Made by a program: the position numbers and the translations under genes. DNA of 63,563 nucleotides, the filler included, from an uncultured bacterium (GTDB lineage: Bacteria; CAYUVA01), in assembly GCA_964448115.1 (NCBI GenBank). It is 5 parts of 4 records of this genome, joined end to end, with 100 filler letters (N's around TTAATTAATTAA, not from the genome) between each part and the next. Parts side by side here need not be neighbours in the genome. Positions count along the whole stretch, not along the records: positions 23,152 to 52,886 come from CAYUVA010000007.1; 4 more parts are not named here. The stretch is one strand, 5' to 3'. The notes beneath the pieces are model-generated. The model was given only the letters and a program-made list of their open reading frames with translations, was not told where the DNA came from and searched no databases. Position 1 is the first letter of the stretch. Each line of letters begins with the position of its first letter. Shown piece after piece: positions 1-60,854 of the stretch.

Positions 1-82
1 CTCCCCCTGGCATAGCATTAAACAAGAGATCAGAAATGGAACGAGCAAAGAAAGCGCGGCTCTGGTTGCTTTTTTTATCATC

Positions 83-871: not shown

Positions 872-907
872 TCCCGATCCAGTTTTGGATGATTCGAACC
901 GGTGGAG

Positions 908-1939
908 TTAACCAAAGAATACCTTTGCCACCTCATAAAGCTCCTTGGGCACATTCTTAGGTTTGAGAGCATCCTTGTTTAGCGGTATGGGAACGATTTC
1001 ATTTCCCTTTAATGATACCATCTTACCGAAGTCCCCTTGCAGGAAGCATTCCACAGCCTTTACCCCGTATCTTGTAGCCAGCACGCGGTCATAGGCAGTT
1101 GGAGTTCCTCCCCTTTGTACATGTCCAAGTTGGGTTACCCTGACCTCGTACCTGGTTCTTTTCTCTATTTTCTCTGCCATGTAGGCTCCGATGCCTCCCA
1201 GTCGTACATGTCCGAAGGGGTCGGTTCCTCTTGAAAGGGTGATATGTTCGTCCTGTCCTTTGATCTTAGCCCCCTCGGCTACGACTACTATGCTGAAGTC
1301 TTTTCCAAGGTCGTGCCTCTTTCGTATATTCTCGCAGACTTCGTCCATATCGATGGGGAATTCAGGAATTAGTATCTGGTCAGCTCCACCGGCTATTCCG
1401 CCCTCCACTGCGATCCAGCCGGAGTGTCTTCCCATCACCTCCACGATCATTACTCTATTATGCGACTCGGCTGTGGTGTGCAACCTATCTATAGCCTCTG
1501 TAACAATATTGATCGCGGTATCGAATCCAAAGGTGGCATCGGTGCCGGCTAGGTCATTGTCTATGGTCTTGGGGATACCGATAATCCTAAGCCCCTCATC
1601 GATGAACCTGGCACCGACTCCCAGGGTATCCTCACCTCCTATGGCTATCAGGCAATCTAGTCCAAAGCGCTTGTAGTTCTCCAGGCATTTTTGAATATCC
1701 TGTGTCTTATTGAAGGGGTTGGTTCTGGTGGTGCCAAGTATAGTACCCCCTTTATGGAGTATCCCGCTTACATAGTATTGGGTTAATGGCACAGTATCGC
1801 CGACTATCAGTCCAAGCCATCCCTTTTCGATCCCCACCACCTGTATATCATGCAAGATCGCCTTGCGGGTAACCGCCCTTATGGCAGCGTTCAATCCAGG
1901 GCAATCTCCTCCGCCGGTCAGGACTCCTATGGTCTTCAA
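908..1939 (-). CDS. pfkA: 6-phosphofructokinase, group III (probably PPi-dependent or mixed-substrate)
   Basis: GGGDCPGLN, GGEDT, PKTIDND, EVMGR, LGHVQRGG motifs. TTG at 1939 lies 9 nt after AAGGAG, so preferred over ORF-track start 1948. Confidence 0.93.
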   Translation of the reverse strand: MKTIGVLTGGGDCPGLNAAIRAVTRKAILHDIQVVGIEKGWLGLIVGDTVPLTQYYVSGILHKGGTILGTTRTNPFNKTQDIQKCLENYKRFGLDCLIAIGGEDTLGVGARFIDEGLRIIGIPKTIDNDLAGTDATFGFDTAINIVTEAIDRLHTTAESHNRVMIVEVMGRHSGWIAVEGGIAGGADQILIPEFPIDMDEVCENIRKRHDLGKDFSIVVVAEGAKIKGQDEHITLSRGTDPFGHVRLGGIGAYMAEKIEKRTRYEVRVTQLGHVQRGGTPTAYDRVLATRYGVKAVECFLQGDFGKMVSLKGNEIVPIPLNKDALKPKNVPKELYEVAKVFFG

Positions 1940-2046
1940 GTCGATCAACTCCTTTTTTGGATCTGTCAGACAGATTAAGAATAAAATGAGCTATCGGCTT
2001 TTAAGCCTAGTTCAATGAGCAAGAATCGCACTAGGTGCCTGCTTTT

Positions 2047-3351
2047 CTAGTTATTCACCGGCAGCCTACCGATGGAGTAATACTTGAATCCGAGTTTTCG
2101 CTTTGTTTCCGGCTTGAATATATTTCTGCCATCGAAGATTATCGGATTGCGCATGGCTTTTTTGATTCGCTCCATATTTAGCAGGCGAAATTCGTTCCAC
2201 TCTGTAACCACGAGCATCGCATCAGCGCCCTCCACAGCCTCGTAAGCGCTCTGACAGTATGTAATATCCGGATGCAGCAACTTCATGTTCTCCATGGCAA
2301 CCGGGTCGTAGGCTCTTATCTTAGCCCCCTCCTCCTTTAGACGATCGATAAGCTCCACGGATTTCGCCTCGCGAAGGTCATCGGTATTCGGCTTGAATGC
2401 TAGTCCTAGGATGCCAAAGGTAAGCCCTTTTATATCCTCGAAAACAGACTTTATTCTTCCCATGAATCGCTCCACTCGCTCATCGTTGACCTTGTCAACA
2501 GCCCTGAGTATGGAGAAATCGACCCCGTACTTACTCGCCGTGTGGATGAATGATTTTACATCCTTGGGGAAGCAGGAGCCACCGTATCCTAAGCCAGGGT
2601 TCAAGAAGGCGTTTCCGATCCTCTTATCCAGCCCCATCCCCTTTACCACGGACTCGATATCAGCGCCGGCTTCCTCGCAGAGATCCGCTATCGAGTTGAT
2701 AAAGGAGATCTTTGTAGCCAGGAATGCATTGGATGCATACTTGATCATCTCCGCTGAGTGTACATCGGTAATTATCATTGGACGCTCCAGGGTCGAATAT
2801 AGCTCCAGGAGGATCATAGCCACATTCTGGCTGGGAGCGCCAATTACCACCCGATCCGGGTACAGGCTATCGTTGATTGCAGAGCCTTCTCGCAGGAACT
2901 CGGGGTTGGAGACAACATCGAAATCGACCTTTCGTCTCTTGTTCTTCTCGATAATCTCGGTTACCAGGTCTCCGGTCCCTACCGGTACGGTACTTTTATT
3001 CACGATAACCTTATATCGATCTATGTGTCGGGCTATCTCCAACGCGACTCCCTCCACCTGGGAGAGATCGGTCTCGCCGTTGGGCAAGGAGGGAGTGCCC
3101 ACCGCAATGAAGATGACATCTGATTTCTTGACCCCCTCAGCCAGGCTGGTGGTGAAGGTGAGTCGCTTATCGGCTGCATTACGGATGACCATCTCCTTCA
3201 ACCCCGGCTCGTAGATAGGCATGATCCCTTTCTTTAGCCCTTCGATCTTCTCTTCGTTGTTATCTACGCATACCACATCGTTGCCTAGGTCTGCGAAGAC
3301 AGCGCCGGTAACCAGACCGACATACCCTGTGCCAATCACGCATATGTACAT
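2047..3351 (-). CDS. ugd: UDP-glucose 6-dehydrogenase
   Basis: GTGYVG Rossmann motif, KSTVPVGT, SNPEFLREG, GYGGSCFPKD catalytic Cys, GLAFKPNTDD. Confidence 0.95.
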   Translation of the reverse strand: MYICVIGTGYVGLVTGAVFADLGNDVVCVDNNEEKIEGLKKGIMPIYEPGLKEMVIRNAADKRLTFTTSLAEGVKKSDVIFIAVGTPSLPNGETDLSQVEGVALEIARHIDRYKVIVNKSTVPVGTGDLVTEIIEKNKRRKVDFDVVSNPEFLREGSAINDSLYPDRVVIGAPSQNVAMILLELYSTLERPMIITDVHSAEMIKYASNAFLATKISFINSIADLCEEAGADIESVVKGMGLDKRIGNAFLNPGLGYGGSCFPKDVKSFIHTASKYGVDFSILRAVDKVNDERVERFMGRIKSVFEDIKGLTFGILGLAFKPNTDDLREAKSVELIDRLKEEGAKIRAYDPVAMENMKLLHPDITYCQSAYEAVEGADAMLVVTEWNEFRLLNMERIKKAMRNPIIFDGRNIFKPETKRKLGFKYYSIGRLPVNN

Positions 3352-3395
3352 TACACTCTCCTGTTGAGACTAGTTATTTGGTTTTCCAAATCCTG

Positions 3396-4811
3396 TTATG
3401 CAGCGCCATTGTAAGCCCGGAAGATGGTTAGCAAGAGTATCTTAAGATCAAATCCGATCGACCAGTTCTGTATATAGTACATGTCGAACTCGATCCGTTT
3501 CTCTATTGAGGTATCTCCCCTTAGTCCATTGATCTGCGCCCAGCCGGTAACCCCGCTTTTCACCTTATGGCGAAGCATATACCTGGGGATCTTCTCCCTG
3601 AACTCCATGACAAACGGGGGACGCTCGGGGCGAGGACCGACCAGACTCATATCCCCTTTGAGCACATTGAAGATCTGCGGGATCTCGTCGAGGCTGGAGC
3701 GACGAAGGATCTTGCCGATGGTGGTGCACCTGGGATCGTTTGGTTTAGCGAACACGGGACCAGTCTCGTCCTCTGCTCCTTCCACCATTGTGCGAAACTT
3801 ATACATGATGAAAGACTTGCCATCCAAGCCCATGCGCTCCTGTTTATAAAAAACCTTGCCCTTGGAGGTTAGCTTGATAGCAATGGCAATGACCCCCATC
3901 AGCAATGTAAGGGGTACCAGAAGCACCAGGCAAATAGTGAGATCCAACAGCCGCTTGGTTAAAGCATTCCAGGTGTCCAATGGCGTCTCGGATAGGTTTA
4001 TTATGGGCAATCCATCCAGATCCTCCACCCCGGCGCGAATGGTTATATATTGCAGCAAATCAGGGACAACCCGCACATCGACTATCTCCTTTTGAAGCAT
4101 ATTGAGTAGCTGGGCAGTGCGGCGATGCGCGGTGAGGGGAAGAGTAACAAAGATCAGATCGATCCCCCGCTCGCTAAGAATATCTGGCAGATCATCGATT
4201 GAGCCTAGAACTGGGTATCCAAGCACCTTCTCACCGTGCAGCCTTGGATTATCATCGACAAAGCCGATGATGTTAAGCCCCAATGCCGGATGGAGGTTGA
4301 TCTTCTCGGCTAATGCCCTACCCAGCCGACCGGCGCCGGCGATTATAACATGACGAAGGTTGAAGCCCCGGCTGCGCAGATAGCGTAAAAAATGACGAAC
4401 GCTCAGGCGGGCGCTTATGATAAATAGATTATCCAGCAGCAAGAATAAAACTACTACAATACGAGAGTACTCGGTCTTTCTATAGAAAAAGGAGATACCT
4501 AAAAGGATGATAGTGGATAACAGCACGCTATTGAATACAGAAAAAGCCTCATCAATGTTCGATTTGCCTCGCTTTGTCTTATAAAGTCCGCTGAAACGGA
4601 AGATCACAAGCCAGATAATGGCGATGATGACTACCACATAAGGATTTAGAAAATCCTCAAAGGGGGGGATGCCGTGAACGATTGGAAATAGCTCTATGAA
4701 TGGCTCCCACTTGAAGCGAATATAATAAGCCACCAACACCGCAAGGAGGGTCAGTGCCACATCCAGCGTCGCTAGTATGGTTATCATCACCCTGTTATAC
4801 TTCTTTAGCAA
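3396..4811 (-). CDS. Undecaprenyl-phosphate glucose phosphotransferase (WcaJ family)
   Basis: N-terminal TMs, CoA-binding-like GAG segment, KFRTM, SLDEIPQ, GDMSLVGPRPE, GVTGWAQING. Confidence 0.92.
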   Translation of the reverse strand: MLKKYNRVMITILATLDVALTLLAVLVAYYIRFKWEPFIELFPIVHGIPPFEDFLNPYVVVIIAIIWLVIFRFSGLYKTKRGKSNIDEAFSVFNSVLLSTIILLGISFFYRKTEYSRIVVVLFLLLDNLFIISARLSVRHFLRYLRSRGFNLRHVIIAGAGRLGRALAEKINLHPALGLNIIGFVDDNPRLHGEKVLGYPVLGSIDDLPDILSERGIDLIFVTLPLTAHRRTAQLLNMLQKEIVDVRVVPDLLQYITIRAGVEDLDGLPIINLSETPLDTWNALTKRLLDLTICLVLLVPLTLLMGVIAIAIKLTSKGKVFYKQERMGLDGKSFIMYKFRTMVEGAEDETGPVFAKPNDPRCTTIGKILRRSSLDEIPQIFNVLKGDMSLVGPRPERPPFVMEFREKIPRYMLRHKVKSGVTGWAQINGLRGDTSIEKRIEFDMYYIQNWSIGFDLKILLLTIFRAYNGAA

Positions 4812-5002
4812 GACGGCTTTCTCTTTTCCTTCTATTCTACGAAAAACTAATTATATATAACTAACCATGAAAAATACAAGTTCCAGTTCCCCCAAAATCA
4901 TAGGTATGAAGATGCCTATGCGGACAAAATAAGCAGCAAAGGCATGATGGACAAAAAAGTCCATAAGTTTTCTATATGATCAGCCTTACCAGCTAATTGC
5001 TA

Positions 5003-5926
5003 TCACTCAACAAAGGTCAACCAATTGAAACGATCAGGCTTTCGCCCCTTAAGTATGTTAAAGTACTCCATTTGGAGTCTCTCGGTCAATGGACCCCTTC
5101 TACCTTCACCGATCTTGATCTTATCGATGGAACGTATAGGGGTAACCTCAGCTGCGCTGCCGGTAAAGAATACCTCGTCGGCGATGTACAGCATCTCCCT
5201 TGGGATAGCCCGTTCGATGATAGGGACTCCCCAGTCCTTAAGGATGGTCAGGATGTTTTCACGAGTGATACCTGCAAGGATGGAGCTGCCCAATGGCGGC
5301 GTATAGACAACATCATCCAGTACCAGGAATATATTCTCGCCTGAGCCTTCGCAGACATAGCCGTTTACATCAAGGGCGATCCCCTCGACATAACCTTCCA
5401 GGATCGCCTCCATCTTGATTAGTTGGCTATTCATGTAGTTAGCTCCACACTTTGCCATAGCCGGGAAGGTATTGGGCGCCATTCGATTCCAGGTGGAGAC
5501 CTTGACATCAACACCTTTCTCCAAAGCCTCTTCGCCAAGATAGGCTCCCCACTCCCAGACCGCAATGGTTACATTGATCGGGCAGTTGAAGGGATTCACC
5601 CCTAGCTCCTTGAAGCCGCGATAGACTATGGGACGAATGTAGCAAGCCTTCAACTTGTTCGCCTTGATGGTATCAATAACCGCCTGCTCCATCTGTTCGA
5701 TGGTATAAGGTGGATCGAGCCGATATACCTTAGCCGAATTATAAAGCCTCTTGAGATGTTCTCTAAGGCATAATATCGCTGCCTTGCCGTTGTAATTGTA
5801 GGCTCTTAAGCCCTCAAATACATTCGTGCCATAGTGAACCACATGACTCAGCACATGGATCTTAGCATCATCCCACTTGACAAGCTCTCCGTCCATCCAA
5901 ATGTAATCGACCGCTTGGATAGCCAT
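5003..5926 (-). CDS. ilvE: Branched-chain amino acid aminotransferase
   Basis: HYGTNVFEG, AKCGANY (PLP Lys), EGSGENIF, ILAGITR, FFTGSAAEV. Confidence 0.95.
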   Translation of the reverse strand: MAIQAVDYIWMDGELVKWDDAKIHVLSHVVHYGTNVFEGLRAYNYNGKAAILCLREHLKRLYNSAKVYRLDPPYTIEQMEQAVIDTIKANKLKACYIRPIVYRGFKELGVNPFNCPINVTIAVWEWGAYLGEEALEKGVDVKVSTWNRMAPNTFPAMAKCGANYMNSQLIKMEAILEGYVEGIALDVNGYVCEGSGENIFLVLDDVVYTPPLGSSILAGITRENILTILKDWGVPIIERAIPREMLYIADEVFFTGSAAEVTPIRSIDKIKIGEGRRGPLTERLQMEYFNILKGRKPDRFNWLTFVE

Positions 5927-6098
5927 GAGTTTCTCCTTAAAGGTCTATTTCCTATGTTTAATCATGCTAAACAGGACTTTAATATAATCATAACATTGAT
6001 TTGAAACAATGTAAACAGCTTTGAGATCTAGAGCTACGACTCAGAAAAAACAGGCAAGTAACTGCCCACCTCAGCCAGCAGCCAAACGCCAACTGATG

Positions 6099-8263
6099 TT
6101 ATTCTTGTGAGTAAAGATAGGGCCAGGGGAGGCTGGTTACGATGCCGCCTTCGCAGGATCCGACTAGTTCCAAAGTGAAGCTCCCTGCCGAAGCACCGCT
6201 GCTAACATAGACCGTCGGGAACAAAAATACTCCTGGATTTAAAGGATCCGGCGATAGCATGATGCCAGTCGGTGCACCTTCTAGGTAGATCTCGACAGAC
6301 TCGATTCCACAAGCGCCGGGATCGCTCAGGTAGGCAAACATGGTGAAATCGCCCCCCTGGCTGGAGGTGATACGAGTGTTCATATAGCCTGCGATCATAA
6401 TAATCGGCGGCTCTGGTTCTGAGGTCGGCGTTGGGGTCGGCGATGGCGAGAAAGAGGCGGTAGCGCTGGGTAGCGGGGTTGCAGTGTAGGTCGGAACTGC
6501 TGTCGGCGATGCTGATGGCGTGTTGGTTGAAGTCGGCTGATGTGATGGTGTTGCTGTGGCAGTAGCGGTTTCAGTTGGTATGGCGGTTGCGGTCGCTGTT
6601 GGGGTTTGACTCGGCGTCCAGGATGGCTCACCGGAAGGTGTGGAAGTCGGAGTTGCAGTAACCGATGGCGTGCTGCTGGGTGTCGAAGTGCTGGTCGGTG
6701 TATAGGTGTTTGCGCCTGTGGGCGTTGCGCTGGGTGTCATGCTCGGTGTGCTGGTTGGTGGTGCTAATGTGGCGGTTGCAGTCGCAGTTGCCGTGGCGGT
6801 TGCAGTCGGGATCTGCGTATTGGTCGGTGTTCTGCTCGGCGAGGCGGTGGCAGTAGCCGTAAGGGTCGGGGTTGCTGTGCCGTAAGGAGTGGGAGTATCA
6901 GTTGGAGTAGGCGAGGCTTGAACATCATACTCAAGGTATAGCTCGAAGTCTCCATAAGCAGCGGGATCTTGTCCATCAACCATGATATAGTATGTCCCGG
7001 CGGGAAGCTGGACTACAATAATATCCATTCCTATATTATCCGAGTAAGCAAAGCAGCTTCGAGTATCATCGCACTCTGATAGTAGTAATATATCAATGCC
7101 TCCCCAGCCATCAAGCTCGGTCATCTCGATATAAACCATGGAGAAATCATCCAGGGTGAATGAATAGGCTACCTCGGGTCCATAGCCGATCCATGAGCTG
7201 CAATTATACTGATGATAAAGCGAGATTCCCTCGATATGACCGATGATCGTTTGGCCATTCTCGATTTCCTGCGGAGCAAGGCATGGATCCGGCTGCTCTG
7301 TCGGCGATGGAGTATAGGTTGCCATTCCGCTGGGGGTGCTGGTCGGTGTCGATGTCGGCGGTAAAGGCGTGGGTGTGGGAACTCCAGGGCAATCGACTGT
7401 CAATCTGAAGGCGCCCTCAAATGGAAAGCGACTATCGACAAAAAGATAATAATCACCGGAACTCAAATAAATGGTAAGGTTTTCATCGCCGCTGGTAGCG
7501 CTTCGTTGAATACAGTTGGGAAACTCCGCACAGTCCAGCGAGATGAATAAATCTGTATCGAGACCATGGGGACCCTGGATGGCTTCGAGCAGGAAACGAA
7601 CCTCGCCATTTATTGGATAATCGAGGATGAAAACCCTCTCCGCCCCCTGTTCCTTGTCGTCGTAGCACCAGTAGTCCTCGATGTAAGAATCGCCGAAGAT
7701 ATCCATCTCTATCGACTCCCAGCAATGGATCGGGATTGGCGAGATGCAGGGATCCGGCAGCGATGTCCTGGTGGCGGTCGGCGTAACCGTCGGCGTCTTG
7801 GTGGCAGTGGGGGTTATGGTTGGTGTTGGTGTCATTGTAGGTGTTGGTGTCATTGTAGGTGTCGATGTCATTGTAGGTGTTGTGGTCGGTAGGTGCGTGC
7901 CGGTTGCAGTTGTGGTCGGTGTTGGCGTTGCAGTCGGGGTCGCGGTGTTGGGATCCGGAGTCGGCGTAGGCGTGTCGGTGGGGGTCGCGGTAGGAGGTGG
8001 AGTCTCTCCTGGAGAAAAACAGCGCAACGTAAACTCGAAAGGCTCATTAAAACGATTGAAGAATGAATCGACGAAAATATAGTAGGTGTCTGCGGCTAGT
8101 TCCTCGTAATAGTAATTATACCCTAGATAACCCGGCGCGAAGTCTATGCAAGTGCCGTTCACATCAGCGCAGTCCCCCACTAATACTATGTCCATCAGGC
8201 TATCGTCATCGTAATTGAGCAGCATCTCCACCGCATAGCTCTGATTTAGCTCAAATATATATA
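6099..8263 (-). CDS. Surface-type protein, 5'-truncated: three Cys-containing PPC-like beta domains, Pro/Thr linkers, conserved C-terminal domain
   Basis: Frame is open to the contig gap. Repeated DPC...GPE...[GD][TD]YY[IL]xVD units, long PT tracts, ends AGYMNTR...WPYLYSQE. Confidence 0.75.
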
Positions 8264-8363
8264 NNNNNNNNNNNNNNNNNNNNNNNNNNNNNNNNNNNNN
8301 NNNNNNNTTAATTAATTAANNNNNNNNNNNNNNNNNNNNNNNNNNNNNNNNNNNNNNNNNNNN
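8264..8363. other. Artificial contig linker (N-TTAATTAATTAA-N)
   Basis: N runs around a six-frame stop sequence. Confidence 0.97.
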
Positions 8364-23051: not shown

Positions 23052-23151
23052 NNNNNNNNNNNNNNNNNNNNNNNNNNNNNNNNNNNNNNNNNNNNTTAAT
23101 TAATTAANNNNNNNNNNNNNNNNNNNNNNNNNNNNNNNNNNNNNNNNNNNN
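23052..23151. other. Artificial contig linker
   Basis: N44-TTAATTAATTAA-N44. Confidence 0.97.
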
Positions 23152-34091: not shown

Positions 34092-36404
34092 CTGTACCGT
34101 TATATCGCCTTTTTCACTCGGCAGCGAGCTGCGATAATCATCGCCACTTTAGCAATCACTCTGATAAGCCTGGCGATCATTTCCCAGGGAGTTTTGGCAT
34201 CATCGGTGCCAAAGATGTTCTTTGGCGACGATCCCTTATACCGTACTTATCGTAATCTAATCGATCAGTTCGGCTCCGATGAGATCTTCGCGGTGGGATT
34301 TAAACTGCCAAAACCATTTAGCCCTGAAGAGATCCAAAGGCTAAAACAGATGGTGAACAAGATCGAAAGCCTTGAGGATATAGAGCGGGTGGATAGCATC
34401 TTAAGCGCAGAGAAAATGGAAGGCTCTACGGGGGAACTAACCATCATCCCTTATTATCAGCTAGTGATAAAAGATAAAATACCATCCGAGCAAGTAATCT
34501 CGGAGCTTTGCTCTGACGATTTATATAGGAACTTTTATATATCGGCAGATGGCAATCATACCGCCATGCTTGTTTATATGATCCCGAACCGACAACGACC
34601 AGTGGAGAAGCTGTATGAAATCTATCAATCGATAGTAGATGTTTTCCTGGATGCTGGCTACAAGCGGAGAGATATTCACTTTGCAGGCTTGCAGGCTCAG
34701 ATAGCTGAGGTCATTCGCCAGTCATATCTAAATATATTTCTTATTTTCCCGATATGTATCCTTTTTCTATCACTGGCTGTTTTCGCCTTTTATCGCCAGT
34801 TCATCCCGGTACTGATCACCATGGGAATAGCCATGGTCTCGGTATCGTGGACAATGGCTTTTGCGGTCATATTGGATCGCGAGATTAATATACTCATGGC
34901 GCTCGTTCCCTCGGTGGTGCTGATAGTAGCCTTCAGCGATATCATTCATCTTTGCAATGCTTATAGTCTCGAACTTGATAATGGTCTGTCCAAGATGGAT
35001 GCGATAACAAAAAGTGGCGCCGAGGTAGGTAAGGCTTGTATGCATACATCCCTAACTACTTTAGTAGGTTTCGCGTCCATGTCCTTTGTCCCCTCGCCGG
35101 GCTTTCAACTGCTAGGCGTAGTGCTCGGATTCGGCGTGGCAATAGCCTTGATGCTTGCCCTTGTATTGGTGCCGGTTCTTGTCTCCCTGGTCGATAAAAG
35201 GTACTTCCTGAGAGTAAAAAAGGGGAATCGTGTACGCGATCTGCTCGACAAGGTTATAAGGTTTTGTCGAGTTGTATCTACCAAGAAGCCGGTCCTGGTA
35301 CTTATTACCTTTACTATCATTATCTTGCTTGGCATTGATGGCTTTCTCAGGATTAAGATCGAGACCGATATGAGCAAACGGCTGGATGAGAGCAACCACA
35401 TCCGCATAGCCGATCGCTATTTCCGCGATCACTTCCACGGCACCAACTTCATGGATGTCTTTATCGATACCGGTAAAGAAGGTGGGGTAATGGAACCCTT
35501 TTTCCTGTCCCAGTTGTCCAAGTTCCAAGATGAAATCCTATCCATAGATGATGTTGATCATGTAACCTCGCTAGTGGATATCATTAAAAGGATTCATAGT
35601 GTGATGGCGATCGAGTCTGATTTGAATTTTAGCTCGGTAAATGAACTGCCCGGCTCCAGGGCGCTGATCGCTCAGTACCTGCTGCTATTCGAGATGTCTA
35701 GCGAGAGCGATCTGGAGCGTATTGTAGATTTTAATAGGCGCAAGCTGAGGCTTTCGGCGCGCATCCTGGATCACGCCTTTCGCAATACTTCCCTTATCGG
35801 CGACCGGATCAATGAGATGGCTGCCAGCTACTTTGACAGTAATGTTACCGTTCAGGCAAGCGGCTATACATACATTCTTGGCAGGTGGTTAGATGATTTG
35901 GTTATCGGGCAGCGGCGGGGGCTTGCCTTTGCTATCTTGAGCATAACTATCTTGATGGTAATCGGGTTGCGTTCTGCAAGGGTAGGCTTGATGAGCATGG
36001 TACCGAACATATTACCTTTGTTATTCCTGCTTGGATACCTGGGTTATTTCTGGGATGCAGTCGATTCGGATGTCATGGCTATATGTATGATGGCAATCGG
36101 CTTGGGAGTTGATGATACCATACATTTTTTAAGTCGCCTAAAGCTGGAATCTTCGCGAAACGAAAATATCGACAATGCCCTTTATGAGACATTTCATTTC
36201 ACGGGCAGGGCGATCATTCAGACTACGGTGATCCTTGCGATCGGTTTCTCACCGTTTGTCATAAGCGATTACTTCTCCACTCGTATGATGGGGACGCTAA
36301 TGCCAATGGTTTTGGCAGTCGCCCTGGCGGCAGACCTGTTTATGGTACCAGCCATGGCAAAGCTGGGGATAATCCGCTTTCGCGATAAGAAAACTTCAAA
36401 ATAA
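34092..36404 (+). CDS. MMPL/RND family transporter
   Basis: Two TM clusters, SLTTLVGF, GLGVDDTIHFL. Frame extends upstream of TTG 34194 through a first TM helix; likely CTG start at 34092 after AAGGGG. Confidence 0.85.
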   Translation: MYRYIAFFTRQRAAIIIATLAITLISLAIISQGVLASSVPKMFFGDDPLYRTYRNLIDQFGSDEIFAVGFKLPKPFSPEEIQRLKQMVNKIESLEDIERVDSILSAEKMEGSTGELTIIPYYQLVIKDKIPSEQVISELCSDDLYRNFYISADGNHTAMLVYMIPNRQRPVEKLYEIYQSIVDVFLDAGYKRRDIHFAGLQAQIAEVIRQSYLNIFLIFPICILFLSLAVFAFYRQFIPVLITMGIAMVSVSWTMAFAVILDREINILMALVPSVVLIVAFSDIIHLCNAYSLELDNGLSKMDAITKSGAEVGKACMHTSLTTLVGFASMSFVPSPGFQLLGVVLGFGVAIALMLALVLVPVLVSLVDKRYFLRVKKGNRVRDLLDKVIRFCRVVSTKKPVLVLITFTIIILLGIDGFLRIKIETDMSKRLDESNHIRIADRYFRDHFHGTNFMDVFIDTGKEGGVMEPFFLSQLSKFQDEILSIDDVDHVTSLVDIIKRIHSVMAIESDLNFSSVNELPGSRALIAQYLLLFEMSSESDLERIVDFNRRKLRLSARILDHAFRNTSLIGDRINEMAASYFDSNVTVQASGYTYILGRWLDDLVIGQRRGLAFAILSITILMVIGLRSARVGLMSMVPNILPLLFLLGYLGYFWDAVDSDVMAICMMAIGLGVDDTIHFLSRLKLESSRNENIDNALYETFHFTGRAIIQTTVILAIGFSPFVISDYFSTRMMGTLMPMVLAVALAADLFMVPAMAKLGIIRFRDKKTSK

Positions 36405-36489: not shown

Positions 36490-38280
36490 ATGAGATGGTT
36501 TATGAAATATAGACTACAGAGAATAGCATTGGCTATTGGCGCCATACTGATGCTTGCAATACTTAATATCTCCCCTAGCTACGGTCAATCAATAAACCTT
36601 GAGACCAATACGCCGACCATGACACCTACCTTGACGAGCACAGCGATTCCAACCTGGACGCCGACAGTTACCCCTACAAGCACGCCTACCGAGCCGCCCC
36701 CCCCGATACCAAGCCCGATGCCAACATATTCTATTGGCACAACCAATACATTTCGCTGGAATAACACACCCGGAGATGGAGCACTGTATTTTGAGGCACA
36801 ATGCTGTACTTCACCCGGCTGCCCGCTTCCCACCCCGAGCGGATGGTTGACCCGCAAGTACTATACATTCACCAACCTGGGGCATGGTACAAAATACTAT
36901 TATCGAGCAAGGGCAAAGAACATTTACAACGGGATATCCGACTGGTCTGAATTGGTCAGTTCCACGCAGGATGCCTTCCCGCCGGCTACACAGGTATCCT
37001 CATTGCCGCCGATTACATATTCCCCTGATTTCAACATTCCCTTCGTTGTGCAACAAGAAGATGTAAGCGGCTTCAAGCATGTGGCTTTGTGGTATAAAAA
37101 GGACGGGTATCACGAGGAGTATGTCCAGTACGATGGATTTTTTAACACTAGCCCGATCAGCTTCTCAACGACACTAGGCAATGGGATGTATCGCTTCTAT
37201 ACCATCGGGTATGATAATGTCGGCAACGAAGAATCTCCACCTCCCTTTGAGGATGCCTATACTACAATCGATACGAATACCTTCACTCCGACCCCGACTG
37301 CCAGTTGGACAGCGACCGATACTCCTACTATAACCCAAACTCCGACCCGGACTCCTTCAGCCACGCCATCATTTACTCCAACTCACACCAAGGACGCGCC
37401 GACTCCACCGAGGATATACAAGGAACCTGCCTATACAGCAGGGGATTCCAACCTGGTAAAATGGACCGATGAGTTCGAAAGCGGAGCAATCGAGTATTAT
37501 GCAGAGATGAGCGTTGACAACTTCCAGAGCGTATCTTCAGACTCCGGGTGGATACCGGGCACGGAATATACATTCCAGCATCTCAATCATGGCATTAAGT
37601 ACTTCTATCGAGTCAAGGACAGAAACGCCAAGCTGTACGAATCAGACTGGTCCAATGTAGAGTGGTCCATCCAGGACCAGAGCCTGCCGGAGAGCTTCAT
37701 CGATCAGCCCCAGCAAGGTCAGTTCATCGGCGGTAACAAATACACCATCAGGGGCACGGCGGTAGATGATGTCTCCAATATCAAGTATGTTGAGCTTACC
37801 TTTGACAACGGCAATAACTGGGTAACCGCCAGCGGGGGAGAGGAATGGGCTTATGAGTGGCAGCTCCCCAAGAGCGGGCAATATACCATCCGCTCCCGGG
37901 CACACGACGATGTCGATAATGTAGAAGATCCAGTGAAGCCGGGGGTCGTGGTGGTCATTGACAGGGAGCCTCCCCTGCTCGCCATTGGCGGATATATGGA
38001 TACCAGGTTAGCCTCCACAGGCGGGGGAGTGCTTACACTTGCTGTTTTCTGCACTGATGTGAACATAACACCATTGGAGCTCTACTACAACGACATGCCG
38101 ACCGGCATAGAGCTTAGTGATAATGGACCGCCTGGCGATTGGACAGCGGGAGATGACCTGTGGATGCTTATTGTTCCCATAACCGGCAGTTTGCCGCCAT
38201 CCAACCTGCTGCTTGAGGTTTATACCGAGGACTACGCGGGGAATATCGCCTGGTGGCCAGCGCTTTATGTTACAGAGTAG
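36490..38280 (+). CDS. Secreted FN3/Ig-like domain protein with PT linkers and conserved C-terminal domain
   Basis: Signal peptide; duplicated YTFxxLxHGxKYxYR...SDWS...QD units; ends GGYMDTR...WWPALYVTE. Confidence 0.78.
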   Translation: MRWFMKYRLQRIALAIGAILMLAILNISPSYGQSINLETNTPTMTPTLTSTAIPTWTPTVTPTSTPTEPPPPIPSPMPTYSIGTTNTFRWNNTPGDGALYFEAQCCTSPGCPLPTPSGWLTRKYYTFTNLGHGTKYYYRARAKNIYNGISDWSELVSSTQDAFPPATQVSSLPPITYSPDFNIPFVVQQEDVSGFKHVALWYKKDGYHEEYVQYDGFFNTSPISFSTTLGNGMYRFYTIGYDNVGNEESPPPFEDAYTTIDTNTFTPTPTASWTATDTPTITQTPTRTPSATPSFTPTHTKDAPTPPRIYKEPAYTAGDSNLVKWTDEFESGAIEYYAEMSVDNFQSVSSDSGWIPGTEYTFQHLNHGIKYFYRVKDRNAKLYESDWSNVEWSIQDQSLPESFIDQPQQGQFIGGNKYTIRGTAVDDVSNIKYVELTFDNGNNWVTASGGEEWAYEWQLPKSGQYTIRSRAHDDVDNVEDPVKPGVVVVIDREPPLLAIGGYMDTRLASTGGGVLTLAVFCTDVNITPLELYYNDMPTGIELSDNGPPGDWTAGDDLWMLIVPITGSLPPSNLLLEVYTEDYAGNIAWWPALYVTE

Positions 38281-38312: not shown

Positions 38313-39584
38313 ATGAGAGTTAATGGCAGTTATATAACCGATTCTTCAATGGCTCATAACCACTCCAAGTCACTTATTATTGGCATGATCATCCTTTGTC
38401 TGCTATCGAATAACCCAGTTTTAGCAGAGAGGTTTCTCTTGGGATATCATGCTTTTCAATCACCTCCATCAATTGTTGTCCCTTCTCCTACCGAGCCGGG
38501 GAGTTACCATGTCGGGGTGCGTACTGCCACCATGGTCGATTATACCCGCTTCGAGGTCTATGGAATGATGTTCCGAACCTTTCCGGTCGAGATCTGGTAT
38601 CCCTGCTTACCCGGCGGGGAGCGCAATACGGTATCGGATATGATCGGAGACCTGCCGAACTGGGCGTGGGAGATCATGGCTAGCTTTTACGGCGATTACC
38701 TCGAGGAGATCCTGCCCGCAGGGACCAGTGCCTATCGGGATGCGGAGCCTGATGTCTCTGGTGCTCCCTATCCGGTGATTATCTTCAGCCACGGCAACCA
38801 GGCGATCCGATTCCAGAATTATACGCTCTGCGAGCACCTGGCGAGCCATGGATTCGTAGTTGTCGCGCCGGATCACTATGCTAACGCTGTTTTCACGAAT
38901 ACGCCGACCATGCCCATTCTATATAATCCCATGGAGATCCTGCACACCGTCATCGACCGCCTTGCCGACTGCTATTTTTTGTATGGTATATTGCGCGGAT
39001 ACAATAATGACAATGATAGCTTCCTTCGTGGCATGTTGAGTCTCGGTCGTCTTGGCATCACCGGGCACAGCTACGGCGGCACCACTGCCATGATGGCAGG
39101 CTACCTTCTGGAGTTCGTTGATGCGATTGCGCCGATGAACCCTGTGCTGATCTACCCCTTCCCGGAGCACTTCGGCAAGCCATTTTTTCTTATACAGGGC
39201 GAACTTGATGGTATTTGCGATTATTTCCTTGACTCCAATCGGCGGGTAAAGGATGCCTTCATGTACTGCGAGTCTCCGCTCAAGGTATGGATTAATATGT
39301 TAAATGGCGGACATTACAGCGCAACCGATGCGTGTTTCTTATTTCCGCCTTCATATCAAGAGTGGAGTGCTGATTGCTCACCGAGCAGGATCGAGCCAGC
39401 GCTCGCAAATGAGATAGCCAAAGGGTATATAACCGCTTTCTTCAAGGCTACTTTATGCGGCGAGGAGGCTTACATGCCTTACTTGGAGGACAATCATTAT
39501 CCGGGCGACCTCGAGCACTATTATTATTGTGCCCCATCCAATCAATATCTCAATAATGCTCCTAATCCCTCGAGCCTCCCTTAA
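38313..39584 (+). CDS. Secreted alpha/beta hydrolase (PAF-acetylhydrolase/chlorophyllase-like)
   Basis: PVIIFSHG, LASHGFVVVAPDH, GHSYGG, GELD, GGHYS. Confidence 0.85.
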   Translation: MRVNGSYITDSSMAHNHSKSLIIGMIILCLLSNNPVLAERFLLGYHAFQSPPSIVVPSPTEPGSYHVGVRTATMVDYTRFEVYGMMFRTFPVEIWYPCLPGGERNTVSDMIGDLPNWAWEIMASFYGDYLEEILPAGTSAYRDAEPDVSGAPYPVIIFSHGNQAIRFQNYTLCEHLASHGFVVVAPDHYANAVFTNTPTMPILYNPMEILHTVIDRLADCYFLYGILRGYNNDNDSFLRGMLSLGRLGITGHSYGGTTAMMAGYLLEFVDAIAPMNPVLIYPFPEHFGKPFFLIQGELDGICDYFLDSNRRVKDAFMYCESPLKVWINMLNGGHYSATDACFLFPPSYQEWSADCSPSRIEPALANEIAKGYITAFFKATLCGEEAYMPYLEDNHYPGDLEHYYYCAPSNQYLNNAPNPSSLP

Positions 39585-47655: not shown

Positions 47656-50600
47656 CTAATCGTTACTCCACAGGTATGGCCAGATAAGGCTGAAACGACC
47701 CTGCTTATTGGCTGCCCTCACCTCTAACGGATAATATCCCGAAGGTATGCCCTCCTGCACCGAGACCAAGAATCCATAGATGCCGTCTCCAGCAGCCAGG
47801 TCTCCATGTTGCCCATCATCATAAAGGAATAGGCCAGTCCCTGTGCCCTGAAATAGCAGCTCAACCTTGGATATATTCGAGATCCCTTCACTGTCGCTTA
47901 CCAGTGCTAGAAGGGTTATGTTGATAGGTGGCAGGTTCCCGATTGCCCTTGTATCCCAGTAACCACCAAGCATGACCGCCGGTGTCGCCTTTGGTGTGGG
48001 CGTAATGGTCGGCGTGCATGTAGCCGTCGGCGTGTTTGTATAGGGCGGGGTCTCGGTTGGAGTTCGGCTGGGAGTGGATGTTTCTGTCCAGGTTGGCTCC
48101 AATGTGCTGGTCGCAGTAGGCGTCTTGGTTGGAGTAGGCGAGTTTGTCGGGGTCATGGTCGGACTTGAGGTCGGCGTTTGTGTCCAGGTCGGGGTAGCGG
48201 TCGGGGTGCTGCTCGGAGTGGATGTTGGAGATGAGGTGGGAATGGTGGTCTCGGTCGGAGTACCAGTGGGTAAAGGCGTATTGGTCGGAGACCATGTAGG
48301 CGTCTTGGTGGGGGTATCGGTGGGGGTGTCGGTAATCGTTGGGGTAGTGGTGGGCAAGGTTGTCAGGGTCGATGTTGGAGTGGCGGTCGGCGAGGCGGTG
48401 CTCGTAGCCGTGGGCGTGAATGTCATGGTCGGGGTCGTAGTCGGTGTCGGGGTTGGATTGTAGATGAATAAAATATCGCTTTCGGTTGCTGCCACCAAGC
48501 CCCCGGTCAGCTTCACAGCAGCTCCGTGTTGAACAGGTCCGCTAACCGATACACTCAGCAGCTCCTGACCATGCTCATCCAATGCATAAAAGTTGTTGCC
48601 CTGATCTCCAAAAAAGATATTCCCTTCCATATCGATCACTGGTGCAGCAGTTATGCCACCAGATGCTTGATAGCTCCAAAGAACCTCACCTTCACGCAAT
48701 CCATACAGCTTACCGGTATCATCTCCGAAAACTATTGTGTCATCCGAAGCCACTGCCAGCGGGGAAGTGATATTAACCCCGCCTTCAGGAGTATAGCTCC
48801 ACTTCAAGGTGCCTTGCTTATTCAGTTTGTATATCTGGGGGGCATCATTAAGCAAGTAGATATTAGAGGAATCATCAAGCAATGGAGATCTGCTTATGGA
48901 ACTGCCGGAATCGAAGCTCCACGCCAGGGTACCATCGGAATTGAGAGCATAAAGATAATTATCCATGGCTGCCAGGTAAATCCTGTAGTCATAACCAACA
49001 GCAGGAGCTGAGGTTATGCTTCCTCCAACTCCATAAGTCCAGTTGACCGACCCTTGTGAGGACAGGCTATAAAGCGTGCCAGCCCAGGTACCAACCAGGA
49101 TAGTGTCCTCGGTTGAAAATGCCAATCCGCCAGTAACATCGCCATCCAAAGTATAAGACCAAAGCATTGTCTCATTGGAATCATATCGATAGAGGATCCC
49201 ATCCTGTTCGGCAACTGCGATATCACCCTTGCTACCTACTGCTGCAGAAGCGATGATGGTCGATGACAAAATATCTATAACATCCACTGTCGCATCATCA
49301 TTGACACCGAGCAAAGTCCCGTCATCGCATCCGACATAAGCCCGGCTACCATCCCCGCGCAATACAATAGGAGAGGTTATCACTTTGCCAGTGGAGGTAG
49401 AACCGATGAGAAGGCTGTCCATATCAACCGGGATCATGCTCAGGTTGCGACGGCGGTTGCTCCCCCCTTCAGTTGACCAGGATCGGCGATAGTGGTCGCT
49501 CATCGGATTGCCCACCATCACCCTTCCCAGGTTGCGATCATCCTGCTGATCGTAGATCAGAGCCTCAATCTCTGCTGGATCGGTTGTGCCCCAGTAATTA
49601 TCAAAGGCATAGGTTGTATAAGTGCTATTCGTGTCGCGCCTCTTTATCGCCTCCTCATGGTTGCCAGAGAGATCGCAATACCTGACCACTGCCGGATCGC
49701 CAAGGATCGCTTGCTGCTCACTGCCGGTTAAGATGCAGTCATACAGAGCCGATGCGCCGATGCCGAACAGCGTCTCACCGACATTGTCAATGAACCAACA
49801 ACCGTAAAAATTGGGTGCTGATTGCGATTGTGCTGCATAGATCGCCCCTCCATGCGCACCGAAGATGACATTGACCTCGTTCTCCCAAAACAGGCAGTCA
49901 TAAAAACTAGGGTTGGATAGATAGAGCGCTACCGCTCCCCCGCTTCCCGGCGCGGTATCCATCATGGAACGGTTGCGATAGAACATGTTAGAGATGAAAT
50001 CGCCGTTGCAATTCACCAATGCACAGGCACCGCCGCCCAGATTAGCCTTGTTTTCACTGAAGATATTGCCGCCGACAAGAAGCTTGCCCTGGTCATTCAA
50101 CCCCTTGTTGTAATAGATAGCAGCGCCGTATTTATCGCAGGTATTGCCGCTGAAAAAATTGCCTCGAATGGTTAAGGTTCCATAGTTGAGAATGCTATCA
50201 TTGTAAATGGCTATGGCTCCCCCTGATAGGTCTGCCTTGTTGCTGATGAACTGGTTTCTCTCCACGACAGCAGCGGAGTTGATCATACACATACCACCTC
50301 CATCGCCGTTGTTTACGATATATTCGGCTCGGTTTGTTATAAATAAATTATCTCGAATTATTGGCGCCGAGTTGACCACATAAATGCCCCCTGCATTTGC
50401 ATCCTTATTCGACTCGAAGAGATTGCCGCTGATTATCGGCGTGCAAGGGAAGGCTAAGCTATTCATGTGGATATACAGTCCACCCCCGCAGGTCTTGAAA
50501 ATGTTGTCCTGAATGTACCCCTTAGTCCCGGGAATATTATAGACCATACCCTGAGCCGGACAGTTCTGGATTATATTGTTCTCAAAATGAACCTCCGGTG

Positions 50601-51126
50601 TGCCCTGGGCGGAAAAGCCAACACCGCCGACAAGCATGCGATTTATATTACAGTTCGCCATGTAGGGAATTGAGCCTTTTAGCGCCATCACTGCTGTTGT
50701 CCCCCAGTAAAAATTGCACCAGACAAAGGCGCACCCATCCACATACTTACCGCCAGTGTCATAAGTGGCACCGACCGCGCTGACATTGAGGTCAATAGTG
50801 TTCCAGTCCCCTGCCCGCGGCGGGCGAAAGGGTCTGCCAGCAGTAAAGGTAATCTGCGCATTTGCATCACCGATAGCCTTGATAATGCCGTTTATCTTGA
50901 GTGAATATACACCTCGGAAGTTGACCTCGACACCAGGATCGATAGTTAACGTTACCCCAGGCTGAACGGTTACATTGCCCTGGATATAGTAAGGGCTGCC
51001 GGCTGCATCCCAGGTGGTGTCAGACCAGATCCAGCCTCCAGGTATCTCGGTAACAGGAAAACTCTGCTGGGGAAACCATAGGATGGCGAGTATAAGGGGT
51101 ATGATTGCTAAATTGTGCTTTGACAT
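47656..51126 (-). CDS. Secreted beta-helix + PQQ-like beta-propeller protein with PT linker and conserved C-terminal domain
   Basis: Signal peptide, GSPY...LTIDPGV, FxxN/GGA repeats, NYWGTT, WSY propeller repeats, PT tract, ends GGYWDTR...WPYLWSND. Confidence 0.85.
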
Positions 51127-51746: not shown

Positions 51747-52886
51747 TCACTCCGGTGGGGGACCGGTGTTCCCATCCGCATCGGTCTTGATAAGATAGAC
51801 ATCAGTACAACCAGCGCCATAAGACTCTGTATAACCAGCGATTATATATCCCCCATCCGTGGTCTGGGCCACGCTATAGCCTTCATCATACATACTTCCT
51901 CCGAATGTCTTCTGCCAGAGCATATTTCCATTAGCATCGGTCTTGATAAGATAGACATCACCAGTAAAAAATAAAAAACCATCATATGAACCAGCGATTA
52001 TATATCCCCCATCCGTGGTTTGGGCCACGCTGTAGCCTTCATCCGAATTACTTCCCCCGAAGGTCTTCTGCCAAAGCATATTCCCCGAAGCATCCGTCTT
52101 GATTAGATAGACATCAGCAGAACCTGCGCCATAAGAATATGTAGAACCAGCGACTATATATCCCCCATCCGTGGTCTGGGCGACGCTATAGCCTTTATCC
52201 AAACTACTTCCCCCGAATGTCTTCTGCCAGAGCATATTCCCCGAAGCATCCGTCTTGATAAGATAGACATCACCTCCAGCAATTAAATAACTATCATACA
52301 AACCAGCGATTATATATCCTCCATCCGTGGTCTGGACGACGCTATAGCCTTTATCTTCATCACTTCCCCCGAAGGTCTTCTGCCAGAGCATATTCCCCGA
52401 AGCATCCGTCTTGATAAGATAGACATCAAAATTACCTGCGCCATAAGACCATGTTTCACTAGCGATTATATATCCCCCATCCGTGGTTTGGGCCACGCTA
52501 TTGCCACAATCAAAATCACTTCCCCCGAAGGTCTTCTGCCAGAGCATATTCCCCGAAGCATCGGTCTTGATAAGATAGACATCAGCAAAACCTGCGCCAT
52601 AAGACCCTGTATAACCAGCGATTATATATCCCCCATCCGTGGTCTGGGCCACGCTTCTGCCTTCATCCCAACTTCTTCCCCCGAATGTCTTCTGCCAGAG
52701 CATATTCCCCGAAGCATCCGTCTTGATAAGATAGACATCATCGTTACCTGCGCCATAAGAAGATGTAGTACCAGCGATAATATATCCCCCATCCGTGGTC
52801 TGGGCCACGCTATAGCCTTTATCTTCATCACTTCCCCCGAAGGTCTTCTGCCAGGGGTTGGGATCATAAGTCGGTGTTGATGTAGG
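51747..52886 (-). CDS. Seven-bladed beta-propeller repeat protein after a PT linker, 5'-truncated
   Basis: Frame open from the gap (PTSTPTYDPNPWQKTFGG); seven 50-aa repeats WQKTFGG...QTTDGGYII...DVYLIKTD. Confidence 0.85.
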   Translation of the reverse strand, partial: PTSTPTYDPNPWQKTFGGSDEDKGYSVAQTTDGGYIIAGTTSSYGAGNDDVYLIKTDASGNMLWQKTFGGRSWDEGRSVAQTTDGGYIIAGYTGSYGAGFADVYLIKTDASGNMLWQKTFGGSDFDCGNSVAQTTDGGYIIASETWSYGAGNFDVYLIKTDASGNMLWQKTFGGSDEDKGYSVVQTTDGGYIIAGLYDSYLIAGGDVYLIKTDASGNMLWQKTFGGSSLDKGYSVAQTTDGGYIVAGSTYSYGAGSADVYLIKTDASGNMLWQKTFGGSNSDEGYSVAQTTDGGYIIAGSYDGFLFFTGDVYLIKTDANGNMLWQKTFGGSMYDEGYSVAQTTDGGYIIAGYTESYGAGCTDVYLIKTDADGNTGPPPE

Positions 52887-52986
52887 NNNNNNNNNNNNNN
52901 NNNNNNNNNNNNNNNNNNNNNNNNNNNNNNTTAATTAATTAANNNNNNNNNNNNNNNNNNNNNNNNNNNNNNNNNNNNNNNNNNNN
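52887..52986. other. Artificial contig linker
   Basis: N44-TTAATTAATTAA-N44. Confidence 0.97.
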
Positions 52987-60754: not shown

Positions 60755-60854
60755 NNNNNNNNNNNNNNNNNNNNNNNNNNNNNNNNNNNNNNNNNNNNTT
60801 AATTAATTAANNNNNNNNNNNNNNNNNNNNNNNNNNNNNNNNNNNNNNNNNNNN
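60755..60854. other. Artificial contig linker
   Basis: N44-TTAATTAATTAA-N44. Confidence 0.97.

Follow-up and report, generated by a model that had tools for sequence, protein, structure and literature searches.

A terminal immunoglobulin-like domain that probably tethers some 160 secreted proteins to the cell surface in bacterial lineages lacking the known type IX tag

In a 63,563-nucleotide stretch of DNA (the window; filler letters included) from an uncultured bacterium of the GTDB lineage CAYUVA01 (GenBank assembly GCA_964448115.1, labelled G000 here, with C-numbers for its contigs; 3,975,921 bp in 86 contigs, 48% G+C, 94% complete), three otherwise dissimilar proteins end in the same domain of about 105 residues. 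This domain recurs throughout the genome, is predicted to adopt an immunoglobulin (Ig)-like fold and stands mostly at the very C-terminus of proteins with signal-peptide-like starts. It probably tethers about 160 secreted proteins to the cell surface in lineages without the known type IX secretion system (T9SS) tag. The reading that we prefer, and hold tentatively, is that of a lineage-restricted Ig-like module acting as a position-tolerant tag that retains or docks exported proteins at the cell surface, much as SLH domains or dockerins do. Shared terminal tags are the means by which bacteria organise their surface proteomes, and to our knowledge each such tag so far (LPXTG, SLH, dockerin, PEP-CTERM and the T9SS C-terminal domain, CTD) has led to dedicated machinery.

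The kind of element is already known, namely a terminal beta-sandwich tag on many secreted proteins, and the central motif of the domain already carries an NCBIfam name. The full-length family, which numbers approximately 160 genes on 4 Mb and is confined to three small phyla in which no T9SS markers were found, appears to be undescribed in the literature searched, as do its architecture with the domain at either end and its conserved stand-alone member.

The domain family in the window and in the genome

The original prediction, made on the window alone, held that the open reading frames (ORFs) 47656-51126(-), 36490-38280(+) and 6099-8263(-) have different N-terminal parts and one alignable tail. 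This was borne out; the first two encode 1156 and 596 residues, and the third was located at 6099-8231/8263(-). Pairwise BLASTP of the three tails of about 105 residues gave E-values of 1e-12, 9e-12 and 2e-12, the third alignment covering the first 54 residues only, and 19 columns are invariant in the three-way alignment. Common to the tails are a P-x-h-h-h-x-G-Y-x-[DN]-T-R start, the motifs PTG and LE, and a WP[YA]L ending with its tryptophan, in every tail, 8 residues from the stop, just as had been read by eye. A D[DN]G..GD..AGD loop is found in two tails and is deleted in the 6099 copy. The tail of the 1156-residue protein starts [11 protein letters not shown], has the loop in the form DDG..GD..AGDG and ends WPYLWSND. 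Both complete genes begin with a signal-peptide-like N-terminus, again as predicted.

A hidden Markov model (HMM) was seeded with the three window tails, iterated once and run on the stop-to-stop ORFs of the genome. The first pass matched 192 domains in 157 ORFs. After iteration the count rose to 201 domains, spread over 163 ORFs, or roughly one carrier in every 24 kb; within the window the scan returned exactly the three full copies already named. Since the same HMM matches so many copies genome-wide, the similarity of the window tails is not a matter of chance. Domain length ranges from 100 to 114 residues. In 143 of the 163 carrier ORFs the last copy ends no more than 10 residues before the stop, and in the remaining 20 more than 30 residues follow it. 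The strictly C-terminal placement that had been anticipated therefore stood as a strong bias but not as a rule: five of the 20 non-terminal ORFs have the domain at the N-terminus, and 36 ORFs contain copies in tandem. Among the 143 terminal copies, 72 have the tryptophan of WPYL 8 residues before the stop and 34 have it 7 residues before; the other 37 have it elsewhere or do not match the pattern. E, D or Q closes the chain in 87 of the 143. Clustering of all 2174 ORFs with 250 residues or more by their final 110 residues brought out one dominant family of 136 members, all of them HMM-positive, and the next-largest C-terminal clusters were TPR (30 members) and histidine-kinase ATPase ends (22 members).

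Conservation over 198 near-full copies is highest at P6, G12 (99%), Y13 (89%), G23-G24, L56, W104 (80%), P105 (99%) and L107 (90%). The acidic loop, searched for with a loose pattern, is present in 46 of 110 single C-terminal copies and, in tandem ORFs, in 19 of 36 first and 27 of 36 last copies. In the copies that bear it, the D-D-G..G-D..A-G-D-G loop is a possible site for Ca2+ or another ligand.

AlphaFold (AF2), supplied with an alignment of 30 copies, modelled the domain of the 1156-residue protein as a six-strand Ig-like beta-sandwich with a predicted local distance difference test (pLDDT) of 89.1 and a predicted template modelling score (pTM) of 0.82. VIA-align (wide) related the model to FN3/Ig modules from many unrelated proteins, glycosidases, sulfite oxidase and titin among them, with Z-scores of 7.5-6.1 over 74-94 aligned residues. 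The model thus suggests a generic Ig/FN3-like (E-set type) beta-sandwich, for which no single structural family stands out. At the sequence level, a search of the PDB returned nothing below E 0.1, and Pfam runs on 30 copies yielded only weak matches to Big_7, DUF4625, Big_13 and Y_Y_Y; the resemblance to Bap was likewise weak (E 0.11). With the whole window proteins as queries, Pfam gave no match over the tail. ESM Atlas returned unnamed clusters only, at 0.92, with recognition below the mark set by the tool. In agreement with the original prediction, no full-length match to a characterised Pfam or NCBIfam family was found, and the pairwise alignments are significant. A word-index protein search with the tail of the 596-residue protein retrieved this protein alone and a profile search of the index that allowed longer proteins gave 9 matches, the index being too insensitive for this family. 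A homodimer prediction scored 0.23 and 0.02 against a mark of 0.42, without controls, and is not used as evidence.

The original prediction had likened the loop to 'choice-of-anchor X', and this likeness proved correct. NCBIfam model NF041940 (choice_anch_X) matches residues 1101-1125 of the 1156-residue protein with 32.7 bits, against a cut-off of 25 bits, and the isolated domain of this protein with 33.9 bits. At E<=1 it recognises 27 of 30 sampled copies, and at E<=1e-3 it hits 59 genomic places, the majority of them over the cut-off; the other two window proteins, run as whole proteins, gave no match at E<=1. What fits the 37-position model is the central L-x-D-D-G-x-x-G-D-x-x-A-G-D-G-x-Y loop together with the next strand. 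The model differs from the domain in that it spans about one third of it and omits the two stretches of highest conservation, the P-x-I-x-x-A-G-Y-x-D-T start and the W-P-Y-L end, and about half of the domain copies lack the modelled loop. Hence a motif in roughly half of the copies already has an NCBIfam name, and the full-length module has no model. The name 'choice-of-anchor' denotes domains that precede various C-terminal sorting signals. This meaning does not fit here: the domain closes the protein in 143 of the 163 ORFs, and no hydrophobic or basic tail is present. A whole-word search of the literature found choice-of-anchor X mentioned in no paper, and, among those listed, the papers that use 'choice-of-anchor' treat other lettered families, to judge by their titles and the starts of their abstracts. 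The motif itself occurs in 12 of 40 other sampled genomes, one to four times each and in varied, mostly internal contexts. In one unrelated genome, a 339-residue protein (locus L044, G007:C98) ends in ...W-G-L-P-Y-R-V-I-P, similar to the WPYL ending, and its choice-of-anchor X loop lies 41 residues before the end. To judge by this protein, C-terminal relatives at a greater distance may be present beyond the three phyla.

Carriers, position of the copies and taxonomic range

Signal peptides were assessed with a crude home-made heuristic, which looks for a hydrophobic 12-mer with net positive charge ahead of it, and not with a trained predictor. By this measure a signal-peptide-like start is present in 137 of the 154 carriers whose 5' end is complete, compared with 552 of 1700 control ORFs of at least 300 residues. 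The 40 residues ahead of the first copy consist to 48% of Pro, Thr and Ser, versus 23% in the cargo (158 ORFs), and this share reaches at least 50% in 83 of the 158. Cargo is diverse: BLAST sorts 153 cargos into 73 clusters, of which 55 are singletons and the largest have 28, 17 and 9 members.

For the nature of the cargo we relied on a profile search of 1.84 billion representative proteins, which gave 2165 matches at E<=1e-3, of which 827 reach E<=1e-10 and 205 reach E<=1e-30. Details of these matches rest on the best 150 of the 2165, a set in which summed scores favour two-copy proteins. Sixty family members with C-terminal copies and no more than 1400 residues were chosen from this set and searched with Pfam. 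They include Peptidase_S8 (5 members), M14, M6 and C25 peptidases, the last with its propeptide, as well as Beta_helix, FG-GAP, PQQ propellers, BNR, LTD, a prenyltransferase toroid and fn3/Big domains; 13 of the 60 had no Pfam match at E<=1e-5.

A terminal beta-sandwich behind a Pro/Thr linker, found at either end of the protein and sometimes doubled, is the classic layout of carbohydrate-binding modules (CBMs), well established for enzymes of the CBM2 and CBM3 type. The domain could accordingly resemble a CBM or an adhesin and direct enzymes to an external polymer or to particles and not to the envelope of the cell itself. Carriers with GH31 and BNR sialidase-like cargo would agree with this, as would the weak resemblance of the domain to Ca-binding adhesin repeats (Big_13, Big_7, DUF4625, Bap). 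We nevertheless consider substrate binding unlikely. Most cargo is not carbohydrate-active but consists of peptidases, propellers, FG-GAP and LTD proteins and beta-helices, a single module of this sort on 163 functionally unrelated proteins would be unusual, no CBM family was matched in Pfam, and a conserved minimal protein, described below, has no enzyme part at all.

The cargo of the 1156-residue protein (residues 30-880) offered another view of the position that the domain occupies. It has 18 non-self homologues at E<=1e-10, and eight of them finish in a module known for anchoring or sorting. In seven this is Por_Secre_tail and/or FlgD_ig, which reaches into the protein's last 3-20 residues; the eighth has three SLH stretches. 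FlgD_ig presumably often acts as a T9SS-type tail. Because these homologues end in anchor modules, the new domain appears to fill the slot that anchors occupy in other lineages.

We then considered the copies that are not at the C-terminus, and examined 18 of the 20 non-terminal ORFs with Pfam and by reading their N-termini. Five ORFs show a mirror-image order of signal peptide, domain, Pro/Thr linker and cargo. Pfam recognised the cargo in three of them (GH31; FGE-sulfatase; FG-GAP plus FGE-sulfatase) and gave no match in the other two. In the remainder, what comes after the domain is either PKD or other modules or a stretch of 44-180 residues without assignment. The tandem ORFs contain two or more copies, and the inner copy retains WPYL. 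The linkers between copies (n=38; median 33.5 residues) are not Pro/Thr-rich and show a W...L pattern; AlphaFold modelled the inter-copy linker as a helix, itself of low confidence, within a tandem model of pLDDT 82 and pTM 0.80. A mirrored layout, tandem copies and trailing domains would, by analogy with known modules, be normal for anchoring or docking and awkward for a translocation signal. We therefore favour anchoring or docking over a translocation signal. The original prediction had named a secretion, a cell-surface and a scaffold-docking tag side by side; the anchoring or docking branch now fits better, whereas the secretion branch fits worse with the mirror order, the tandems and a loop present in only about half of the copies.

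Known sorting signals were sought directly. No T9SS tail (TIGR04183) was found in any of the seven carrier genomes tested (G000, G022, G041, G043, G054, G221 and G371; seven candidates were scored in G000), and the same search was positive in 17 of 40 sampled relatives, eight of which had 24-107 tails. SprA (TIGR04189) was not found in the three carriers G000, G022 and G041 and was found in all three controls, G004, G028 and G035. The PorV family (NF033710) was not found in the two carriers G000 and G022; in the same three controls it was seen at family level, below the equivalog cut-off. Alignment of the domain profile with 17 T9SS tails taken from the relatives gave an hhalign probability of 0.35%, and neither Por_Secre_tail nor FlgD_ig matched any of 30 copies. 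Identity of the domain with a T9SS tail was rejected on the missing HMM match and the low profile-profile probability. A one-for-one exchange of T9SS tail and domain in the second of the three phyla was rejected as well, three genomes of this phylum that lack the family being also without T9SS tails.

Signals of the transmembrane type (LPXTG, PEP-CTERM, GlyGly-CTERM) do not describe the tails, which end x-W-P-Y-L-x-[IV]-x with no hydrophobic stretch. The search for PEP-CTERM (PF07589), made without a positive control, had no match in G000. Together with the negative dockerin and T9SS tests, this upholds the original statement that the domain has no transmembrane or basic tail and resembles none of the familiar sorting signals. 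As a separate observation, the genome contains one gene of the exosortase/archaeosortase family (G000:C2:147767-148192(+), PF09721, 43.5 bits, in an ORF of 187 residues); no PEP-CTERM tail was detected. SLH gave one weak match genome-wide. A crude self-BLAST with five targets per query, which excludes little, revealed no scaffoldin-like protein of many repeats without the domain in G000.

Four Omp85-family genes indicate that the organism is diderm. Six secretin (PF00263) genes are present (C1:34975, C1:64168, C40:16550, C15:33634, C14:67854 and C6:67058), unusually many for a 4-Mb genome, and these are possible outer-membrane routes for the carriers. They also bear on a second alternative, in which the domain would be a folded C-terminal secretion signal for an outer-membrane translocon other than T9SS, be it a secretin system or another pore, and might be removed or modified afterwards. 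This would account for the C-terminal bias (143 of 163 ORFs), for chains ending 3-4 residues past WPYL in 106 of the 143 terminal copies and for their preference for a last E, D or Q. The number of carriers and the types of cargo recall the T9SS cargo sets of neighbouring phyla, and T9SS tails stand on homologous cargo in other organisms. We regard it as quite unlikely all the same. The five N-terminal copies are bona fide and directly follow the signal peptide, inner tandem copies keep WPYL, PKD and other domains trail some copies, the domain has no sequence relation to T9SS tails, and a candidate translocon was not found.

With regard to range, the GTDB set that we examined contains no second genome from the phylum of G000, and all 400 genomes compared with it are related at domain level only. 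In a survey of these 401 genomes from 348 genera, with 12 candidates scored per genome, seven had the full domain at E<=1e-30: G000, three of a second phylum and three of a third. Wider sampling of these phyla found 11 of 14 genomes positive in the second (4-48 matches at E<=1e-10) and seven of seven in the third (55-76 first-look candidates each). Among the genomes sampled, the full domain thus occurs in three small phyla only. The original prediction had looked to many C-terminal copies, on proteins with signal peptides and in a restricted range of taxa, as support for a sorting tag, and these were indeed obtained in the genome-wide search. Among the best 150 of the 2165 library matches, 106 are two-copy proteins ending at the C-terminus, and at least 25 are proteins of G000 itself (28 with three later identifiers).

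A minimal member of 163-222 residues was seen in all ten loci examined, from G000 and nine genomes of the second phylum (L045-L054). It has a signal-peptide-like start, about 60 residues with a conserved tryptophan and a single domain ending SD[LIM]WPYLT[IV]. In these loci it holds the best or near-best copy, and it is the best-scoring member in most of the genomes. Its neighbours in the second phylum are syntenic housekeeping genes (KH-domain protein, FabF-like, Mfd-like and ATP-grasp-like). Since this synteny is not common to G000, the neighbourhood gives no lead to machinery.

That the domain might be an inert Ig-like end-cap or spacer, spread by domain shuffling and with no common targeting role, seems to us very unlikely. 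The fold is generic, the choice-of-anchor X motif turns up in various non-terminal settings across 13 of 41 diverse genomes, and relatives serve as internal repeats in giant proteins, all of which such a spacer would explain. Yet beyond a flexible Pro/Thr linker at a free protein end there is nothing to space, and the edge residues G12, Y13, P105 and L107 are strongly conserved over some 200 paralogues. The terminal bias, the restriction to exported proteins and the stand-alone member likewise argue for a shared function.

Feature coordinates and neighbouring genes

The window is a chain of separate contigs joined across paired 44-base N runs at 8264-8363, 23052-23151, 52887-52986 and 60755-60854, so that gene order over the joins is not real. 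Positions 1-8263 come from contig C6, and the domains at 47656 and 37966 are both on contig C7. The features are collected in Table 1.

Table 1. Coordinates of the domain, its linkers and its cargo in the window, and of the minimal member elsewhere in the genome.
Feature	Position	Strand	Basis
Terminal Ig-like domain and stop codon, 1156-residue protein	47656..47985	-	HMM envelope 47659-47997, E 4.9e-34
Pro/Thr/Ser-rich linker of about 160 residues between cargo and domain, 1156-residue protein	47989..48462	-	Sliding-window composition; Pro/Thr-rich at residues 881-1052
Cargo of 1156-residue protein: signal-peptide-like start, right-handed beta-helix, PQQ/BamB-like beta-propeller	48463..51126	-	Pfam
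Terminal Ig-like domain and stop codon, 596-residue protein; loop present; ends WPALYVTE	37966..38280	+	HMM envelope 37957-38277, E 1e-29
Cargo of 596-residue protein	36490..37965	+	Sequence, Pfam, NCBIfam, composition
Terminal Ig-like domain and stop codon, 5'-truncated protein; loop deleted; ends WPYLYSQE	6099..6410	-	HMM envelope 6102-6422, E 1.1e-29
Pro/Thr linker (about 6411-6926) and cargo of truncated gene	6411..8263	-	Sequence, composition, Pfam
Minimal member of G000	L020:1273-1833 (contig C4)	+	Sequence

Pfam supports the assignment of the 1156-residue cargo with matches to Beta_helix (2.6e-18), PQQ_2 (1.5e-21) and Beta-prop_ACSF4 (1.8e-32). The cargo of the 596-residue protein combines a signal-peptide-like start, two Pro/Thr tracts, FN3-like modules and an Ig module of the OmpL47 type or Mo-co-dimer-like; no Pro/Thr linker lies immediately ahead of its terminal domain. 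The gene at 6099 is truncated at its 5' end, because its frame continues without a break as far as the contig join at 8263/8264, from where the N run extends. Its cargo consists of three PPC-like, cysteine-containing modules with Pro/Thr tracts between them (weak Pfam match to PPC, E 0.073).

The 596-residue carrier has neighbours on both sides. An ORF of 736 residues resembling RND/MMPL membrane transporters (34194-36404(+)) ends 85 bases upstream on the same strand, and a hydrolase-like ORF of 423 residues with a signal peptide lies downstream (38313-39584). Further along the window, an ORF of at least 353 residues (51747-52808(-)) runs towards the N join. It consists of about eight tandem repeats of some 43 residues with the pattern D-G-G-Y-I-I-A-G ... 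D-V-Y-L-I-K-T-D-A-S-G-N-M-L-W-Q-K-T-F-G-G and looks like a beta-propeller-type repeat. A repeat protein resembling it sits upstream of the small domain protein of G000, at L020:1-903.

Proposed role and comparison with known terminal tags

Retention or docking at the surface could proceed in three steps. Judging by their N-terminal sequences, the carriers would be exported by the Sec pathway via their signal peptides. They would then cross the outer membrane by a route other than type IX; routes resembling the type II secretion system would be available, given the six secretin genes. Finally the folded module, on its flexible Pro/Thr linker at the C-terminal or less often the N-terminal end, would bind a common component of the envelope or matrix. 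Both the binding by the module and its ligand we infer, and 'sorting system', the term of the original prediction, is kept here as a candidate label.

Several findings weigh against surface retention or docking. The signal-peptide heuristic is positive in 32% of the control ORFs. The best VIA Z-score, 7.5, lies in a range that the tool itself calls common and so speaks of a generic fold, and Foldseek, which the original prediction had proposed to run on the domain, returned no match in the PDB at E<=1e-3. Among the best 150 of the 2165 library matches, 27 are two-copy proteins that continue for 100-390 residues, with PKD or Big domains where checked, and 11 are giant adhesin-like proteins with 5-12 partial internal repeats in which both the start and the WPYL end are missing. 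Hence the fold can act as an ordinary structural repeat as well. The acidic loop cannot be a universal binding site, because about half of the copies are without it. Absence of T9SS is a property of the phylum and not a replacement, as genomes of the second phylum without the family are tail-free too. No binding partner, receptor, scaffold or co-occurring machinery was found for the domain.

A more far-reaching version of the docking proposal is possible, if doubtful. The three small phyla without T9SS markers would have a surface-display system of their own, in which the module docks about 160 exported proteins per genome on a single envelope receptor or lattice and the stand-alone protein is a core component. 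Proteases, propellers, beta-helix proteins and adhesins would be the cargo of this system, which would be a counterpart, unrelated in sequence, of the T9SS CTD and of cohesin-dockerin.

A full-length family model would annotate the exported surface proteome of these uncultured lineages at once, and the domain is a handle for finding its partner. If such a partner turned out to be a new receptor or secretion route, it would open a new system of envelope biology; if the domain is merely a sticky Ig module, the outcome would be a useful annotation and little more.

Known analogues fall into two classes, translocation signals such as the T9SS CTD on the one hand and anchoring or docking modules such as SLH, dockerins and linker-tethered binding modules on the other. 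Like the type A CTD of T9SS (TIGR04183; PF18962, Por_Secre_tail), the domain is a small, here predicted, beta-sandwich that in most of its carriers stands at the very C-terminus, and the signal-peptide proteins so tagged number tens to hundreds. The two also have comparable cargo (S8, C25, M14 and M6 peptidases, beta-helices, LTD and FG-GAP) and the same slot on homologous cargo in other organisms. It differs in length, with about 105 residues compared with about 75, and in its unrelated sequence; it also occurs at the N-terminus (5 ORFs), internally or followed by other sequence (15 ORFs) and in tandem (36 ORFs), and SprA and the PorV family were not found in the carriers tested. With dockerins it has in common that a mostly C-terminal, sometimes N-terminal or doubled module stands on many diverse secreted proteins, with linkers and an acidic loop rich in D, N and G. 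Dockerins, however, are small helical pairs of EF-hand-like elements, whereas the new domain is predicted to be all-beta; no dockerin Pfam match was obtained on 30 copies, and a crude search found no cohesin-like scaffold in G000. SLH domains and linker-tethered CBMs, for example of the CBM2 type, have no sequence match to the new domain. Like it they stand at either terminus and often in several copies behind Pro/Thr linkers, as non-covalent modules, and one cargo homologue has SLH at the equivalent position.

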